From contig JBEKTP010000002.1 in the NCBI GenBank assembly GCA_049515915.1, forward strand, positions 36,524-100,523: a DNA stretch of 64,000 nt, in the 5' to 3' direction. This DNA is from Patescibacteria group bacterium. GTDB taxonomy: Bacteria > Patescibacteriota > UBA1384 > UBA12157 > JAENIV01. The translations under genes and the position numbers were made by a program. The notes under the pieces were generated by a model. The model worked only from the letters and a program-made list of their open reading frames with translations. It was not told where the DNA came from and did not search any database. Below are positions 10,107 to 63,893 of the stretch, in pieces (the first letter of the stretch is position 1; every line of letters starts with the position of its first letter).

Positions 10107-10383
10107 TGGCTCCCCGGGTCCGATTCGAACGGACAACATGCTCCTTACACTGATCTCCTAATTGCTTAAGAGGGTGGACTATCTCATCGCCATCTCTTTT
10201 GATTTAGGCGTAGGGCATATAGTCTCTGAACCTTCAACGATGTTACCATCGAAGCTTGGCTGCGGATTACCCTTTGATTACTCTTGGGGTTTCCCGACAA
10301 TTAACCCTATTTTTCAATCCGCCTTTCAGCGGAAAGCTGCAATATTCTTACAGGGAGCCGCTCTACCGTTGAGCTACCGGGGA
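10107..10383 (-). tRNA. tRNA (most likely Asn, anticodon GUU) interrupted by a group I intron in the anticodon loop
   Basis: Exon 1 (10383..10350) forms acceptor, D arm and anticodon stem; exon 2 (10147..10107) gives anticodon stem GGAGC, T arm and CCA; U1-A72 with G73 fits Asn; the alternative reading is Thr(UGU). Confidence 0.7.
10148..10349 (-). ncRNA. group I self-splicing intron (~202 nt) within the tRNA
   Basis: Conserved P (AAUUGUCGGGAAACCCC), Q (AAUCCGCAGC), R (GUUCAGAGACUAUA) and S (GAGAUAGUCC) elements in canonical order; candidate P1 CUGU/GCAG with U:G at the 5' splice site; intron ends in G. Confidence 0.7.
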
Positions 10384-16796: not shown

Positions 16797-19700
16797 TCAT
16801 TCCTTATCGATGATATCGGAAAGCATGATTTTCTTTTCGACCGAAGCAATCAGTTTGCGAGTTTTAACGACCGAATCCGGCGAAACGGAAACCGAAGTCG
16901 CCCCTTCTTTAACCATCAGTTCGGCGATTTCCGGATAAGTCGTCGCCGCCTGACCGCAAATCGAACAAGTGATATTGTGGGCACGGCAGGCCTTAATCAC
17001 ATGGGCAATCGACAAGGTCACTGCCTCATCTCGTTCGTCAAATTCAGCCGCCATCGTTTCATTATCACGGTCAATCCCTAAAGTAAGTTGGGTCAAATCA
17101 TTTGAGCCAATCGAAATGCCATCGATGCCTTCCTCGATAAATTTATTGATTAAAATCACGTTCGAAGGAATCTCACACATCATCCAAAGTCGGAAGTCCG
17201 GGCCTTGTTTTAAACCCGAATCGGCGATCAAAGCTTTGACTTTTCTGAGCTCGTCGATAGTTCGGACAAACGGAATCATCAGCCATAAATTTTTGCTATT
17301 TTTACGGACTTTTTTAATCGCTTCCAATTCCAGCTTAAATAAATCCGGTTCTCTAATATAGCGGCTGGCGCCGCGATAACCGATCATCGGATTATTTTCA
17401 ACCGGCTCGATATCCTTGCCGCCCTCTAGGTTCCGGTATTCATTCGTTTTAAAGTCAGTCGCCCGATAGACCACCGGCCGCGGGAAAAATGCTTGGCAGG
17501 TCATCAGCAACCCTTCTTCGAGCTTACTAATATAGATGCTGGTCTTGCCTTCATTAACCAAGGCACGCGGGTGCTTGCCGATTTCAGCGATCATAAATTC
17601 CGCCCGCATCAGTCCGACGCCGTCGCAAGGCAATTTGGCCACTTTTTCGGCGGCCGAAGGCTCACCCAAATTAACATAGACTTTGGTGGCGGTGATTGGG
17701 ACCTCCTCGGCAAAACCACCCATGTCATCTTGATGGGCCGGTGCCTCTTCGCGAGAGACTTTGCCTTTATAAACCAGGCCTTTAGCGCCATCAACCGAGA
17801 CCACTTGGCCCATCGTTAAGGTATGAGTGGCGGTGCCGGAACCGACAACACAAGGAATCCCGAGCTCTCGGGAAACTATTGCTGCATGGCTTGTTTGTCC
17901 CCCGGTGTCGGTGACAATTGCCGCTGCTTTTTTCATGGCCGGTACATAGTCGGGCGAGGTCATTTCAGTAACTAAAACATCACCCTTTTTTACTTCATCA
18001 ATTTGATCGGGAGAATGAATAATTTTGACTGGCCCCGATGCCAACCCGATCGAAGCGGCTAGACCTTTCAAAATGACATTTGCTTTTGACTCTTCCTGCC
18101 CAGACTCCGGCGTTTCACCTTTTTGATTTTTAATATTTGATTTTTGATCTATCGTCGTAATCGGTCTCGACTGGACAAAATAAATATCTTTACCTTCAAT
18201 CGCCCACTCCGTATCTTGCGGAAAGTGGTAGTGATTTTCGATTTGTCTACCAAACTCGGCGACTCGTTTGATTTCTTCGTCGGAAAGTTTTTGTAATTTT
18301 TGTTCGTTTTTTAGCAAACTGACATGTTTATCGGCATTGCCCACTTTAGCAATTTTCCAAGGTTGCACATTAACTTCTTTAATTTCAATTTTCTGATCTT
18401 CTTTGTTAACAACATAACGGTCAGGAGTGACCGAACCAGAAACAATCGCTTCACCTAAACCAAATCCTGCCTCGATCACAATTTTGCTTTTATCATTGTC
18501 AACCGGATTGATCGTAAACATAATGCCAGACTTTTCAGACTGGATCATCTTTTGGATGGGAATGGCAATACCCACTTTCATATGATCAAAATTGTTAATC
18601 TTACGATAATAGATTGCCCGGGCCTCAAATAACGATGCCCACGACATTTTCACTGCTTTGACAACTTCGGTGCTCCCAGAGACATTTAAAAATGTTTTCT
18701 GCTGCCCCGCAAAAGAAGCCGAATTATGAGTAAAAATTCCGCCGAGACCAGCAGCAAAATTTTCATTTCCTGGCACAGAAAAGTCATAAACATCACCACA
18801 ATACTCAACCGGTTTAACTTCTTTAATTTCATCCCATAATACATCACGATCAAATATTCGATCAAATCCTCTAATATGGTACTGATCGAGAATTTGTTTA
18901 AATCTATTCTTGCTTAATCGTCCCGTGATCAAACCTTTATTCCAAGGAGCGGCTCCTTTTAAAAATCTTCCGGCCGCGTCATACCAAATATGGGTCTTGA
19001 TTTTTTCCTTATTCACCTGCTTTAAATAAAAAGAATGATGACATTTTTGACAATAAAATCTTAATCTGTTTTTATAACAACCCGATTTTTTTAATATAGT
19101 TTGACATTTCTGACAGCGGTAATGATACCTTTGTTCCTGTGGTAATCCTTCGATGAATTTTTGTCTGATTTGATAAGCAATTGTTTTCGAGACATCGATA
19201 TTTTCTTTAAATTCTTGATGATTACTCTTTTTCATATACTGTTCAACTAACATTTGTAATTTTTCTTTCTTATTTGGATGACTAAAGTTAACTCGCTCTT
19301 GAAAATTCTTAAAATCGGCATGAAGAATATAAATTGTTTGAGAATTATTTTTTTGCGTGAGAGAGAATCTCAAGCCTAATCTTTCAAGAAGTTTCACAAT
19401 TCCACCAATTAATAACGGGGAAGTCGAAGTATAACTTAAACTCGTATCAACCCCTCCATCTCCATCAAAACAACCTTGGAGAAACTCACCGATTAATTTT
19501 TCATTTAAGCTAAAAACAAAATCTGGTACCTTTTTAATCGAGCACGATCTTCCCTTGCCAATTTGAGCGGTCGGCTTTCCGGTTAGTTCATGAAGTAACC
19601 TGACAAGAGATTTGCAGTAAACCCTGATAGAACCTTTATTGATCTTTTGATTATGGTAGAGTCCTAATGATCGTAAAAAGTCCATAATTCTTCGCCGAAT

Positions 19701-20669
19701 AATAAGATTACTGCTCGTGACAACAACACAATTATTCTTATAAGTACATCCTTCAGCAACATAAATACCCAGAAAATAAAGCAGATCACCATTAATGATG
19801 ATTCGATTGGAGAGTGAATGCTGAATGCTCCAATTCATTGATTGATTGGTAATTTGAAGATAACCCGCTTTTTCAACGACATCGGCCCCTTGAACATAAT
19901 CCTTCACAACAAGATATTTTTGTTCTGCTCCTAGATTAGGGAGTTTTTTAATACAAGGTACCCGGCCATCTCTAATATTTTCGACAGCAATAGTCTTGGG
20001 CAACAAAGTCTCATTATCTAAAATAAGAGCTGAATGATTAGAACTAATCGTAATTTCTCGGCCAGTAGCGGTTTTTATTTTATAAAGTTTTTTATTGTTA
20101 ACGGGATGACGATAAAAATTGCTCACTTTCTTCCAAGTAATTCGACCATCTTTCATTGAGGGAATTCGAACCTTGCAAGCTAGATTTCCATCACTATCGA
20201 CCGTTCGACGATAGATATCTTTTATGGGTGAAAAAACCACCCGATCATTGATTTTGGCTATAATCTGCTCGTCTTCAGACACACTCGGTAGATCTTCAGC
20301 CGTGGCTGAAGATCTCACGGCTACAAAAATACTTGAGGCCTGAGTTGTGTAGAGCTTTTTATAAGCGGCGCTAATTTCGCTTTCTAAAGATTTTGGCATC
20401 GGCTCAGAAAGAATTTCTTTTTGGATATTGCTAGCCGTTTTATTTAACTCTTTCGAATTATTGACATCAAGATTTTTTAAAAGTTTATTAATGGTGATAT
20501 CCAAATTAGTGCTTTTGAGAAAATTAAAGTAAGCGGTGGAAGTAACAATAAAACCCGGCGGCACGGGCAAGCCCGCTCGGGTAAGTTCGCCTAAATTCGC
20601 GCCCTTACCGCCGACCAAACCAACGTCACCCTTGCCGACTTCCTTAAACCAAACAATATTTTTCGTCAA
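16797..20669 (-). CDS. ppsA: phosphoenolpyruvate synthase (pyruvate, water dikinase) interrupted by an intein
   Basis: N-terminal PEP/pyruvate-binding domain; phospho-His GGQTSHAAIVSRELGIPCVVG; C-terminal PEP-utilising domain; the VRSSATAEDLP / SASFAGQQ motif is split by ~521 aa. Confidence 0.85.
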   Translation of the reverse strand: MTKNIVWFKEVGKGDVGLVGGKGANLGELTRAGLPVPPGFIVTSTAYFNFLKSTNLDITINKLLKNLDVNNSKELNKTASNIQKEILSEPMPKSLESEISAAYKKLYTTQASSIFVAVRSSATAEDLPSVSEDEQIIAKINDRVVFSPIKDIYRRTVDSDGNLACKVRIPSMKDGRITWKKVSNFYRHPVNNKKLYKIKTATGREITISSNHSALILDNETLLPKTIAVENIRDGRVPCIKKLPNLGAEQKYLVVKDYVQGADVVEKAGYLQITNQSMNWSIQHSLSNRIIINGDLLYFLGIYVAEGCTYKNNCVVVTSSNLIIRRRIMDFLRSLGLYHNQKINKGSIRVYCKSLVRLLHELTGKPTAQIGKGRSCSIKKVPDFVFSLNEKLIGEFLQGCFDGDGGVDTSLSYTSTSPLLIGGIVKLLERLGLRFSLTQKNNSQTIYILHADFKNFQERVNFSHPNKKEKLQMLVEQYMKKSNHQEFKENIDVSKTIAYQIRQKFIEGLPQEQRYHYRCQKCQTILKKSGCYKNRLRFYCQKCHHSFYLKQVNKEKIKTHIWYDAAGRFLKGAAPWNKGLITGRLSKNRFKQILDQYHIRGFDRIFDRDVLWDEIKEVKPVEYCGDVYDFSVPGNENFAAGLGGIFTHNSASFAGQQKTFLNVSGSTEVVKAVKMSWASLFEARAIYYRKINNFDHMKVGIAIPIQKMIQSEKSGIMFTINPVDNDKSKIVIEAGFGLGEAIVSGSVTPDRYVVNKEDQKIEIKEVNVQPWKIAKVGNADKHVSLLKNEQKLQKLSDEEIKRVAEFGRQIENHYHFPQDTEWAIEGKDIYFVQSRPITTIDQKSNIKNQKGETPESGQEESKANVILKGLAASIGLASGPVKIIHSPDQIDEVKKGDVLVTEMTSPDYVPAMKKAAAIVTDTGGQTSHAAIVSRELGIPCVVGSGTATHTLTMGQVVSVDGAKGLVYKGKVSREEAPAHQDDMGGFAEEVPITATKVYVNLGEPSAAEKVAKLPCDGVGLMRAEFMIAEIGKHPRALVNEGKTSIYISKLEEGLLMTCQAFFPRPVVYRATDFKTNEYRNLEGGKDIEPVENNPMIGYRGASRYIREPDLFKLELEAIKKVRKNSKNLWLMIPFVRTIDELRKVKALIADSGLKQGPDFRLWMMCEIPSNVILINKFIEEGIDGISIGSNDLTQLTLGIDRDNETMAAEFDERDEAVTLSIAHVIKACRAHNITCSICGQAATTYPEIAELMVKEGATSVSVSPDSVVKTRKLIASVEKKIMLSDIIDKE
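18723..20285 (-). mobile_element. intein (~521 aa) with LAGLIDADG homing endonuclease and C4 zinc ribbon, inserted in ppsA
   Basis: Begins SVSEDEQ... just after AEDLP and ends ...GIFTHN with Ser at +1; block B TISSNH; LAGLIDADG-like LGIYVAEG and GCFDGDGG; C-terminal VYDFSV...IFTHN; CQKC..CQKC ribbon. Confidence 0.8.
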
Positions 20670-60407: not shown

Positions 60408-63400
60408 ATGTCAAACAAAACCAACCGTCAATGGGCGAAAGTTTTTTTGGCGGCCGTGATGGCGGTCGGTTTATTGTTGATAATTTTTGCTCCGACTGTC
60501 GCCCACGCCGCCGCCAGCGATATTCGCGACAGTTTGATTTCCACCGGCAACGGCCCTTACAAAGATTCTGTCATGCTCGGTTGGCGAATCTGTTTGGGGC
60601 TGGCCGATGTTTTTGTCACTTTAATTTTGGTTTTTTTGGCTGTCGTCAATATTGCCCACATCCAATACGATACCTACAATCTCAAGAAAACTTTGCCCTG
60701 GCTGATTATTGGCGTCATTTTAGCTAATTTCAGCCTGGTCATTTGCCGGATGTTTGTTGACGCCGCCAATGTTTTAACCAACACTTTTGCCACCAGTAAT
60801 ATTGTTACAAATATTCTCAAACCGCTTTATGTAAACTTAGGCTTGAACTATTTGGCCGGCGCGACAGCAACTGTTGGGCTGGCGAGTCTGGTCGGGTCAT
60901 TGGGAACACTAACAGTCGCCATGGGCATTATGACTTTGATTCTTCTTTTTCTGCCCTTAATCGGTCTTTTAATTTTATTGTTTTTACTTTATATCCGCAT
61001 CGCTTTAGTCCTCTTTTTAGCGATAATTGCGCCAATCGCCTTTGTCATGCTCGCCTTTCCGGTTACCCAAACCTATTTTAAACAATGGTGGTCCTGGTTT
61101 TTAAAATGGACCTTTATGAAACCGATCTGTTTTTTCCTTTTGTGGGCCGCCGTGACACTCGGCAAACCGCCAACCAGTGGAATTACAATGGTCAGCTTCT
61201 TAATTACCTTGGCTTTATGCTATCTCTCTCTTATTGCTCCTTTCAAACTCGGTGGCGCCATCATGGCCGGCTGGGGCAGGGTTGGTCGCTATATCACCCA
61301 AACCAACAAAGGCGGGGCGGTCACCAACTGGGCCGGCCGCCGTAAAGACCAGTCGGGCGCGGAGCTAAAAACGAAATTTCCTCGTCTTTTTGCCGGCGCG
61401 GAAAAAGATCGTTTAGTGACCGAACAAATGCAAAAAACGGCCGACAGCCGCGTCAAGCAGCAAGCCTGGAAAAGCCCTGATCTTGTCGCTCAGACCGAAA
61501 AAGCTGAAACTGAAGAGTCTAAACTTAAAGACTTGATGAATAAGCAGATGAAAGCTTTTGAAACTGGTGAAATGAAAATGAATTGGCTTTTGCGGCTCAA
61601 GCTCGCCCAGATTGAGTGGAACGGTGTTCGACCGAAGATTCAAAAGAAAACCTCCGGACAAATGGCCAGCGAGAAATTCGATACTGCGGCGGCACTCGAA
61701 CTTTCGACTAAACAACTCGAAGCGCACCGCAAAGACGCGACTTGGGATGCTATTATCAACGCCGGGCGGGGCGACCGAGAGCTGGACCAACGAATGGAAG
61801 ATCTTAAGAAGGCTGGCGCAAGCCTCCAAACTATCGACGTTGACAAAAACGGAAAAATCAACCCTGTTACTAAATATAAATACAAAATCGATGAAAAAAC
61901 CGGGGAAGTTGAAAAAGACGCTCAGGGTAATCCAGTTTTTGATACAGATCTTCAAGGTAACAAGATTTTAGAAGTCGCTACGTATCATGATTACATGGAG
62001 CAAGCGGCTTTTGTCAGCATGCAAGCCTTATCTGAACAAGACCCCACTAAAAAGAAAAATTATTTTGACTCAGCCGCGGAGATACGAAAACGGGCTGCCG
62101 ATTTCGCCCGCCAGCATCAAAAAACTGTCGACGGTAAAACTATTCACTATGACGCTTTTATGGATAAAAACCAATTTGGCCGAATTTATTCTATCACGAC
62201 CGCTCATCTCTTGGAAGAAGTTTCCACAAATACCCTGAATGAAAATGTTCACACCATGGTTGATCGTTTCTATAACGGCGGCTATGGCTGGCGCAATAAC
62301 CGTGGCAGCCACAAAGATTTGATTAACGTGGCGAGAGGCGATTACTCAGAAGTTGGAACGACCGCCATTGCACCCGCCGTAGCGGAATTTAGAACCTTCC
62401 TTGATTTCATCGGCCGTAAAGGCGGCAAAGACCGAGGTCGGTTTTTTGCCGCTTTTCTAGAAGCCATTGACGGCGGAGAAGTTTACGGCGACGACAATAA
62501 AGGCAAACTTTTAGAATCTCTGCTAAACAAAGAAAATTCCATTCGCCAAGGCGCTTCCGACGAATTCTTGGCTGAAGCGGTTGCCAGTGCCGCCCGGCGT
62601 GGGGTAGCCTCCTTTGCCGGCCTTAATTTTGCCCAATATGGGATAACGACAGGATCTCAGCCCACGAACGTTCTTGATATACTAAAACAACATGGAATTA
62701 ATTCAATCGATCAAATCAAGGCTCATCCAGAGATTTTTCGCCAACTTGACTTGACACCTTCTAACGCCACTCGTGCTCAAAGAAATATGCTCGACGGCAT
62801 GGCCGATCTTTTAGAAGAATCGGAAAATTTCTGCGGCCAGGGCAACCCCGTCGCTTATACGGTTAGAACCAAGAACCGCAACCACGACGATTGGTTTAAA
62901 GATTTTGCCCCGATCGAGAGTAAAGACGTCAAAAGAGTACTTAAAAGAAGATCCGAAAAGTTTGCTCACGACGAGGTTGTAAACGAACAATCATCTGCTC
63001 TCACTTCGAGCTCCCCTGAACAAATTATATCTTCAGCCAATAATGATCCCATTAAAGCAAGTCAAAAATATAGCGAGGCTGGAGCTAATTTAGCCACCCA
63101 AGAAAACCTTCAGATGGATTATTTTAAAATGGGCAGCCAGCCTATTGATCCTACGATTTTCAGAAATCAACTCGTCCAGGCCATCACCCAATCCGCCGCC
63201 ACCTCTTTTACCGGTTTACAAAATGAGCTTCAGCAAGCTTTCACCGGTCTTCAAGTGACGATGCCGGACATCGATACTCCCCAAGCAGTGGCTACCTTTA
63301 AACAGGAAGTCGCCGCTACTCAACAGGGGCTTAAAAATTACGCCAGTGTAACTAGTATGGCTCAGGCGGCCGATGTCCGCCAATACACTGGAGTTACACC

Positions 63401-63893
63401 AAACGAAACTATCGCCCAGCTTACCGACAGCGTCAGTAAACTGGATGCCGCCGTTCAAAAATTCAACGATGTCAGCGACAATATTCAATCGGCTGATCCT
63501 AATCAGGATATGCCTGAATCAGCTAAAAACCAATTACTTGATGCTTTAGCCGAAAGAGGAGCAGTGACCCCTTTGACTCGGCAAGCCCTTAGTACGGACG
63601 AGATGAAACTTCGCGCCGTCGCGGAAAAAATGATTATCGGCCTAAGGGGCGCAATTAATGCCCGCGGAGATAACGACAGACCATGGACCGAGGAAGAACT
63701 TTTGAGAGGAATATTAAAGGCGCAACGTTCAATTGATACTAGCTTAAATCAACCGACCGGTGAGGCTAACCAACCACCAAGCGGAGGACAAGCGCCGTCC
63801 ACTGGTGGGCAACAAAATCCGACACCGCCGACAACTCCAGCTAAACCGGGCGGAACCACCCAACCAATATCAGAGGCTGATCAGGAAGAGTAA
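60408..63893 (+). CDS. large membrane protein with an N-terminal VirB6/TrbL-like polytopic domain (~300 aa) and an ~850-aa hydrophilic extension ending in a P/T/G/Q-rich tail
   Basis: Signal peptide plus six to seven TM helices with a VirB6-like hydrophobicity pattern; starts 18 nt after the secreted-protein gene. Confidence 0.45.
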   Translation: MSNKTNRQWAKVFLAAVMAVGLLLIIFAPTVAHAAASDIRDSLISTGNGPYKDSVMLGWRICLGLADVFVTLILVFLAVVNIAHIQYDTYNLKKTLPWLIIGVILANFSLVICRMFVDAANVLTNTFATSNIVTNILKPLYVNLGLNYLAGATATVGLASLVGSLGTLTVAMGIMTLILLFLPLIGLLILLFLLYIRIALVLFLAIIAPIAFVMLAFPVTQTYFKQWWSWFLKWTFMKPICFFLLWAAVTLGKPPTSGITMVSFLITLALCYLSLIAPFKLGGAIMAGWGRVGRYITQTNKGGAVTNWAGRRKDQSGAELKTKFPRLFAGAEKDRLVTEQMQKTADSRVKQQAWKSPDLVAQTEKAETEESKLKDLMNKQMKAFETGEMKMNWLLRLKLAQIEWNGVRPKIQKKTSGQMASEKFDTAAALELSTKQLEAHRKDATWDAIINAGRGDRELDQRMEDLKKAGASLQTIDVDKNGKINPVTKYKYKIDEKTGEVEKDAQGNPVFDTDLQGNKILEVATYHDYMEQAAFVSMQALSEQDPTKKKNYFDSAAEIRKRAADFARQHQKTVDGKTIHYDAFMDKNQFGRIYSITTAHLLEEVSTNTLNENVHTMVDRFYNGGYGWRNNRGSHKDLINVARGDYSEVGTTAIAPAVAEFRTFLDFIGRKGGKDRGRFFAAFLEAIDGGEVYGDDNKGKLLESLLNKENSIRQGASDEFLAEAVASAARRGVASFAGLNFAQYGITTGSQPTNVLDILKQHGINSIDQIKAHPEIFRQLDLTPSNATRAQRNMLDGMADLLEESENFCGQGNPVAYTVRTKNRNHDDWFKDFAPIESKDVKRVLKRRSEKFAHDEVVNEQSSALTSSSPEQIISSANNDPIKASQKYSEAGANLATQENLQMDYFKMGSQPIDPTIFRNQLVQAITQSAATSFTGLQNELQQAFTGLQVTMPDIDTPQAVATFKQEVAATQQGLKNYASVTSMAQAADVRQYTGVTPNETIAQLTDSVSKLDAAVQKFNDVSDNIQSADPNQDMPESAKNQLLDALAERGAVTPLTRQALSTDEMKLRAVAEKMIIGLRGAINARGDNDRPWTEEELLRGILKAQRSIDTSLNQPTGEANQPPSGGQAPSTGGQQNPTPPTTPAKPGGTTQPISEADQEE

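Follow-up and report, generated by a model that had tools for sequence, protein, structure and literature searches.

Inteins in which the splicing (Hint) domain is split by a two-motif LAGLIDADG homing endonuclease are known from solved archaeal structures, among them PI-PkoII (2CW7), PI-PfuI (1DQ3) and TliVMA (7QSS), and inteins bearing LAGLIDADG endonucleases are textbook selfish elements. Homing endonucleases may also carry accessory DNA-binding modules, such as the DNA-recognition region of PI-SceI, the stirrup domain of PI-PfuI and the zinc finger and minor-groove helix of I-TevI. For prokaryotic phosphoenolpyruvate (PEP) synthase (PEPS, encoded by ppsA), the intein site that has been described is GG[TRM]T/CHAA, directly before the phospho-histidine (PMC10710043). 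The intein at this swivel-domain site of the same enzyme family starts with Cys, and it also occurs in PpsA proteins of the Candidate Phyla Radiation (CPR) and of DPANN lineages (P0133 and P0037, in the latter of which it spans ~410 aa without a zinc module). We take this element to be the Methanocaldococcus 'Mja PEP' type. Here we examine a 64,000-nucleotide stretch of the Patescibacteria contig JBEKTP010000002.1 (the whole of which we call the window), where ppsA is interrupted at a different position. Taken jointly, our evidence makes it highly probable that the interruption is a class-1 LAGLIDADG intein in the ATP-grasp domain of a patescibacterial PpsA, that it was acquired horizontally, and that a zinc-ribbon module within it most likely provides extra DNA binding.

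The 1290-aa product of the interrupted gene matches the NCBIfam models NF005057 (944.9 bits; cut-off 598) and TIGR01418 (897.2 bits; cut-off 739.75), and each match is broken into two stretches flanking an insert. The protein has equivalog-level profile matches, the three Pfam domains PPDK_N, PEP-utilizers and PEP-utilizers_C, and the catalytic His; the host protein is PEP synthase (pyruvate, water dikinase). A first-pass annotation, made from the sequence without database searches, had called a 521-residue in-frame insert at 18723-20285 that splits VRSSATAEDLP from SASFAGQQ, and this is what the open reading frame (ORF) at 16797..20669 contains, at residues 129-649. That the insert starts with Ser and ends with His-Asn followed by Ser, as had also been noted, can be read directly from the translation (SVSEDEQ at the start and GGIFTHN at the end, with Pro before and Ser after in the exteins). 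Without the insert the product is 769 aa long and colinear, without gaps, with PpsA proteins of 767-785 aa that lack an intein, as it is with solved structures of PpsA, which read VRSSATAEDLPEASFAGQQ at the site; the extein had rightly been described as a normal 769-aa PpsA. Where the window has AEDLP, 521 aa and SASFAGQQ, the proteins P0008, P0009 and P0037 and the solved structures have AEDLP-N/T/S/E-ASFAGQQ, and the reconstituted window junction reads ...GCTGAAGATCTACCGTCGGCTTCTTTTGCGGGGCAGCAG.... Because 17 contigs from several metagenome assemblies encode an identical 1290-aa protein, the insert is not an assembly artefact.

Judged by its site, residues, profile matches and fold, the insert is a class-1 intein with a Hint fold, and it is predicted to splice. 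It matches the Pfam model Intein_splicing PF14890 (E=3.5e-19; 69.6 bits vs 35.8), and its N- and C-terminal splicing regions match TIGR01445 (38.3 bits vs 24.5) and TIGR01443 (25.5 bits vs 15.6). Searched against PDB sequences, it matches PI-PkoII and the TFIIB, DnaB, CDC21 and RadA inteins, its C-terminal half aligning with the C-termini of PI-PkoII and the TFIIB intein. The class-1 splicing residues are complete in the window copy (Ser1, Ser81/His84, Asp501, His520, Asn521 and Ser+1), with Ser81 of block B replacing the usual Thr. Across homologues, S1 and H84 are invariant (26/26), as are D501, H520 and N521; residue 81 is S or T except for Ala in L011 (n = 26), and the +1 residue is S or T wherever the C-terminal junction of an allele has been recorded.

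The central part of the intein is, by motifs, profile and fold, a monomeric two-motif LAGLIDADG endonuclease, for which DNA cleavage is predicted. It matches Pfam LAGLIDADG_3 PF14528 (E=2.2e-12; 47.5 bits, cut-off 22.5) and Hom_end PF05204 (E=2.7e-7; 31.1 bits, cut-off 21.1), and the motifs quoted in the first-pass annotation (TISSNH, LGIYVAEG, GCFDGDGG and CQKC..CQKC) are all found in the insert. E178 and D276 are each kept in 25/26 homologues, and the window copy is intact at both, at block D K251 and P254 and at four putative zinc ligands, with no frameshift or deletion. The beta-rich linker that precedes the endonuclease occupies the position of the DNA-recognition regions of other endonuclease-bearing inteins. 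We modelled the intein with AlphaFold using an 11-sequence family alignment, which gave a mean predicted local distance difference test (pLDDT) score of 85.7 and a predicted template modelling (TM) score of 0.84, whereas a 4-sequence alignment gave an unusable model (pLDDT 52). The best Foldseek matches of the model are TliVMA (7qss), PI-PfuI (1dq3) and PI-PkoII (2cw7) (E ~1e-22; TM 0.54-0.61 over the query and 0.59-0.73 over the target), while I-DmoI and I-Tsp061I match the central endonuclease domain (TM 0.61-0.69 over the target). The earlier call of a full-length LAGLIDADG intein thus withstood an InterPro-type profile check, with Pfam and NCBIfam models above their cut-offs, at scores well out of reach of chance, and the intein fold in the model.

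Blocks B, E and F/G align with those of the archaeal structural inteins, including the NENF version of block F. These structural inteins share only 14-15% identity with the window intein, begin with Cys1 rather than Ser1, and interrupt other host proteins at other sites; in the PI-PkoII alignment, moreover, there are ~13 residues where the window intein has a ~100-aa zinc-ribbon/PWNKG module. The best match to a curated model is that to the archaeal RpoA'' model NF011491 (PRK14898; E=2.3e-44), which covers residues 36-356, corresponding to the N-terminal splicing half and the endonuclease. This model stands for another host gene, its match ends before the zinc module, and the score of 151.7 bits lies far under the cut-off of 783.

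We then aligned the extein to Listeria rifampin phosphotransferase, using the native numbering of the latter. Pro126 and His127 flank the junction, which lies nine residues past Arg117 and ten before Thr136. Both Arg117 and Thr136 are ligands of the nucleotide (ATP) alpha-phosphate, and mutation of either abolishes function (PMC4844700); the first-pass placement of the site in the nucleotide-binding region therefore holds. The site lies in the ATP-grasp domain, ~290 extein residues upstream of the phospho-histidine motif GGQTSHAAIV, and it differs from the GG[TRM]T/CHAA site because that motif is uninterrupted in the window. In a search of open-access papers we found no description of the AEDLP site or of the zinc module, and the only PEPS site stated was GG[TRM]T/CHAA. 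Neither the insertion site nor the invariant zinc-ribbon module seems to have an earlier description.

Other inteins were encountered in PpsA proteins. The intein of P0037, a close CPR PpsA, ends in ...VKN, without a penultimate His, and is followed by Ser at +1; P0133 carries inteins at both the AEDLP and the phospho-histidine sites; and further inteins interrupt PpsA at GIP/C (P0128) and at NSEK/C (P0130). From these sequences, PpsA of CPR and DPANN lineages emerges as a host of inteins at no fewer than four sites (AEDLP/S, GGxT/(C/S)-HAA, GIP/C and NSEK/C), with some proteins carrying two. Four PpsA proteins of 908-937 aa (P0065, P0072, P0081 and P0082) have no intein; in them the phospho-histidine swivel domain is duplicated in tandem, and GGRTSHAAIVSRELGIPCVVG occurs twice.

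Between the endonuclease and block F lies an accessory module that in the AlphaFold model consists, in order, of helices, beta-hairpins at residues 383-432 holding the four Cys, the GRF...PWNKG motif and a pair of short helices. Full-length family members (25/25) show no variation at the four Cys or at Arg409, Gly439, Trp448 and Asn449, and the module has a net charge of +18. When Pfam was run on the 25 members, no match to the module reached the gathering score; the best scores for the window module were LIM (19.5 bits vs 22.9) and Zn_ribbon_8 (15.6 vs 34.4), and the ribbon matched most frequently was that of the IS1595 transposase, PF12760, weakly and in 13/25 members (best E=0.003). A PDB profile search with the module returned only generic C2H2, LIM and ribosomal zinc fingers. 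In concept, as a nuclease add-on for DNA contacts, the module may be likened to the accessory modules of PI-SceI, PI-PfuI and I-TevI, with which it shares no significant sequence match. Among the 150 best intein matches it is confined to the PpsA family. For the closest family pairs dN/dS, the ratio of nonsynonymous to synonymous substitution rates, is 0.12-0.33 in the module and 0.04-0.25 in the endonuclease, values that indicate purifying selection on both across the family. A natural variant bears on its role. In the Haloferacaceae metagenome-assembled genome locus L032 (3263-4510), a 416-aa derivative lacks exactly the zinc module (~residues 375-463) and carries E178Q, yet keeps the splicing residues and an open frame; the module therefore appears tied to the endonuclease and not to splicing. 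In the Halobacteriales locus L025, D276 is replaced (D276N) and the module is retained. By its position, its charge and the one natural variant, the module is most likely an extra DNA-targeting module of the endonuclease.

A similar ribbon, CPxC...QRYxCxxC, occurs in unrelated inteins of FlaI/GspE-like ATPases (P0145 residues 1634-1674; P0190 residues 1277-1312), where, unlike in the PpsA family, it is located between block B and the first LAGLIDADG motif. This suggests that zinc ribbons are recurrent modular add-ons of intein endonucleases.

To place the window intein among its relatives, we defined an AEDLP/S family from public genomes as inteins at the same PpsA site with Ser1, ~520 aa, and, after the LAGLIDADG domain, a zinc ribbon of four Cys and then PWN(K)G, scanning one genome per GTDB species. 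The scan recovered homologous inteins in 29 loci, all at precisely this site (AEDLP, then S...HN, then (S/T)ASFAGQQ), and the frame is open in all of the loci recovered at full length (25/25). Over its whole length the window copy can be aligned to 24 GTDB loci and to 10 database proteins, with which it shares 33-45% identity, and all family-invariant residues are present in it. HMMER, run exhaustively over 1.84 billion cluster representatives, gave ~13-16 family clusters, all at PpsA residues ~132-147; the next-best matches (E ~1e-36) were to unrelated inteins in which the endonuclease domain alone was matched. Among representatives of 15 billion proteins, the nearest intein homologue is 45% identical to that of the window. 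Since every other family member is 36-45% identical, no close donor has been sampled. Looking for a viral vector, we scanned IMG/VR viral contigs and found no copy of the window intein, only distant LAGLIDADG relatives (24-30% identity).

Most hosts of the family are Halobacteria and DPANN archaea (Nanoarchaeota, Woesearchaeota, Pacearchaeota, Aenigmatarchaeota, Diapherotrites and Iainarchaeum), and five belong to the CPR, with Parcubacteria and Staskawiczbacteria each contributing one and Saccharibacteria three; at one of the CPR loci a bacterial DnaG primase adjoins ppsA. The first-pass annotation had presented the interrupted ppsA as a bacterial allele of a kind best known from archaea. The bacterial allele is not unique, for five CPR bacteria among the GTDB representatives have homologous inteins at the same site. 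In neighbour-joining trees of the inteins, the bacterial members were monophyletic in 0/100 bootstrap trees. The Staskawiczbacteria intein clustered with two inteins of DPANN archaea in 100/100 trees while its extein groups elsewhere, a conflict that indicates at least one transfer between domains. The window intein fell with a long-branch Saccharibacteria pair in 60/100 trees, a grouping that may reflect long-branch attraction. In non-halophilic hosts the GC content at third codon positions (GC3) of the intein is ~0.13-0.42, independent of the host value, and in the two high-GC Halobacteria examined it is 0.78-0.88, almost at host level. This pattern agrees with a pool that circulates horizontally and has long been resident in haloarchaea. 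The family is thus present, unannotated, in ~30 public genomes, and the window element is a real but fairly ordinary selfish element. We advance more tentatively, as a possibility that we rate at somewhat less than even, the joint proposal that the zinc/PWN(K)G module is an undescribed DNA-targeting domain and that the family, at its undescribed PpsA site, crosses the boundary between Bacteria and Archaea between CPR and DPANN lineages and so marks gene flow.

Proteins encoded in the window include RecA, RecX, sortase, a protein with an SLH domain, DnaG, RpoD, FtsK, PNPase and RNase J, and the host is therefore bacterial. The bacterial host had been stated in the first-pass annotation, and the database record for the protein also reads 'phosphoenolpyruvate synthase [Patescibacteria group bacterium]', from a genome assembled from metagenomes. 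The named relatives of the extein are Berkelbacteria or Patescibacteria. That annotation had proposed looking in related genomes for intein-free ppsA alleles at the same site, and such alleles are plentiful: the closest PpsA relatives are 87%, 83% and 78% identical and more than 100 others are 61-77% identical, all without this insert and with Asn, Thr, Ser or Asp at the +1 position. One intein-free relative (L040) shares the recX-ppsA gene order. By parsimony, a gain of the intein in the window lineage is much to be preferred over more than 100 losses that occurred independently. Raw GC content (34.8% in the intein vs 44.8%) was dropped as proof of a recent transfer, because intein GC lies below extein GC in 24/25 family loci, and for this reason GC3 was compared with that of host ORFs instead. 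GC3 is 0.274 in the intein, 0.461 in the extein and 0.463 +/- 0.066 across 35 host ORFs (minimum 0.371). Together, the intein-free close relatives and the foreign GC3 point to horizontal acquisition. The putative donor would be of lower GC content and so far unsampled, and the timing and direction of the transfer are likewise inferred.

We propose the following course for the element. The 1290-aa precursor would be translated as one chain, and Ser1 would initiate an N-O acyl shift at the Pro-Ser1 bond, following established intein chemistry. Ser+1 would then attack the resulting ester (transesterification), Asn521 would cyclise with the help of His520 to free the intein, and an O-N shift would restore a native Pro-Ser bond, yielding active 769-aa PpsA and a free 521-aa intein. 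The latter would act as a site-specific endonuclease that cuts intein-free ppsA at the DNA encoding AEDLP-x-ASFAGQQ (predicted intein-less junction GCTGAAGATCTACCG then TCGGCTTCTTTTGCGGGGCAGCAG, with the intein point between them), and repair from an intein-bearing allele would copy the element (homing). The zinc module may add flanking DNA contacts, extending or stabilising target recognition. The source of the window intein could be the pool circulating among DPANN archaea, Halobacteria and CPR bacteria. An active selfish element is a reasonable inference, as the catalytic residues are intact, close relatives lack the intein and its codon composition is foreign.

Several observations weigh against this account. 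Family inteins commonly have a lower GC content than their exteins, which makes composition alone weak evidence of recency. A co-conversion tract was sought by comparing the exteins codon by codon with those of the intein-free L039 and L040 and was rejected (p=0.14-0.15, with other gene regions scoring higher); synonymous changes specific to the window, among them a switch between the serine codons TCT/AGC, are slightly in excess immediately downstream of the junction, but not significantly so. No intein-free allele of the same species was found, and the intein is present in all 17 contigs. The residue before the intein, Pro128 (20286..20288), makes for an unusual junction, as Pro directly before an intein slows the first splicing step in engineered inteins; since Pro is kept in 25/28 alleles with a recorded N-terminal junction, where two others have Glu and one has Gly, it is presumably tolerated in the family. 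The dN/dS values are approximate, with dS near saturation, and describe the family and not the window's own lineage. Finally, the link between the module and DNA binding consists of position, charge, one deletion variant and a sub-threshold resemblance to a transposase ribbon.

Some of these points would suit an intein that still splices while its endonuclease is inactive, fixed in the decay phase of the homing cycle and kept since precise loss is rare and imprecise loss destroys PpsA. With 17/17 contigs filled and no empty allele on record, the window intein may indeed be fixed, with no homing target left; the co-conversion comparison shows no recent homing tract, and active-site variants do occur in the family (D276N in L025, E178Q with the deletion in L032). 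The window copy itself, however, retains E178, D276, K251, P254 and the zinc ligands without frameshift or deletion, the family endonuclease is under apparently strong purifying selection, and GC3 has not drifted to the host value, arguing that residence has been too short for decay. On this evidence we regard an inactive endonuclease as unlikely, at perhaps one chance in several, and favour the intein whose endonuclease remains active.

It is more speculative that the four-Cys module makes maturation of PpsA depend on zinc or redox state. Redox- or metal-controlled conditional splicing is known in other inteins, and four invariant Cys, held in a compact module that directly precedes the C-terminal splicing blocks, could form a zinc- or redox-sensitive switch through which PpsA activity would follow the state of the cell. 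Such a switch sits poorly with L032, which lost the module together with an endonuclease catalytic residue but kept its splicing residues and open frame. The module is also strongly basic (+18), its weak similarities are to transposase-type zinc ribbons, and a similar ribbon stands beside the endonuclease, at another position, in unrelated inteins. The module follows the endonuclease and precedes block F, and DNA-binding accessory domains of endonuclease-bearing inteins are found at comparable positions. We therefore hold a splicing switch to be quite improbable compared with a role of the module in DNA binding. As for the insert being non-functional, whether an assembly chimera, a disabled ppsA pseudogene or an ordinary lineage-specific PpsA domain, hardly any room is left: the identical protein comes from 17 contigs of independent assemblies, the frame is unbroken with every splicing residue conserved, and the exteins are 87% identical to intein-free orthologues over their whole length. 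The segment is moreover absent from more than 100 close PpsA homologues and from the solved PpsA structures, and it matches intein and LAGLIDADG models and structures, not PpsA.

The zinc module is a candidate new DNA-recognition add-on, with possible use in engineering endonuclease specificity. The occurrence of the family in CPR bacteria, DPANN archaea and haloarchaea, with its conflict between tree and domain, offers a concrete marker with which gene flow across the domains can be tested in ultra-small organisms, most of them uncultured. Coordinates of the features are collected in Table 1.

Table 1. Features of the interrupted ppsA gene and its intein, in window positions.
Feature	Position	Strand	Basis
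ppsA precursor gene (1290 aa, TTG start), PEP synthase with one intein	16797..20669	-	ORF and profile matches
N-extein, aa 1-128, ending ...VRSSATAEDLP	20286..20669	-	
C-extein, aa 650-1290 and stop, starting at Ser+1 (SASFAGQQKTF...)	16797..18722	-	
Phospho-histidine motif GGQTSHAAIV, uninterrupted, inside the C-extein	17874..17903	-	
Intein, 521 aa, Ser1...His520-Asn521, protein residues 129-649	18723..20285	-	profiles, structure model, motifs
Splicing (Hint) domain, N-terminal half, with block A SVSEDEQI (Ser1)	19950..20285	-	TIGR01445 E=2.1e-9; beta-rich, pLDDT ~90
Block B GREITISSNHSALI, Ser81-x-x-His84; TISSNH at intein residues 79-84	20022..20063	-	
Beta-rich linker from block B to the endonuclease	19791..19949	-	strands at residues 124-163, pLDDT 68-87
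Predicted two-motif LAGLIDADG homing endonuclease domain	19251..19790	-	Pfam, Foldseek
LAGLIDADG motif 1, LGIYVAEG, intein residues 172-179 (Glu178)	19749..19772	-	
LAGLIDADG motif 2, GCFDGDGG, intein residues 271-278 (Asp274 and Asp276)	19452..19475	-	
Accessory module, ~135 aa, from the endonuclease end (~residue 345) to block F (~residue 482)	18846..19250	-	conservation, model
Four-Cys zinc ribbon CQKC-x17-CQKC (C391, C394, C412, C415)	19041..19115	-	
PWNKG of the Y-x-D-x-x-G-R-F...P-W-N-K-G motif	18933..18947	-	
Splicing (Hint) domain, C-terminal half, with block F GDVYDFSVPGNENFAA (Asp501) and block G LGGIFTHN (His520, Asn521)	18723..18845	-	TIGR01443 E=1.1e-5

Elsewhere in the window, a 1161-aa ORF (60408..63893, +) has no Pfam match at E<=0.001. 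A tRNA gene at 10107..10383 (-), between rpoD and a 561-aa ORF that resembles a secreted protein, is interrupted in the anticodon loop by a 202-nt group I intron (~10148..10349; Rfam RF00028, 82 bits). The gene was missed by ARAGORN at default settings; the intron mode of the program gives tRNA-Asn(GUU) with the intron after U35, and a shifted splice register would give Thr(UGU). The U1-A72 pair and G73 of the interrupted tRNA match those of E. coli tRNA-Asn.

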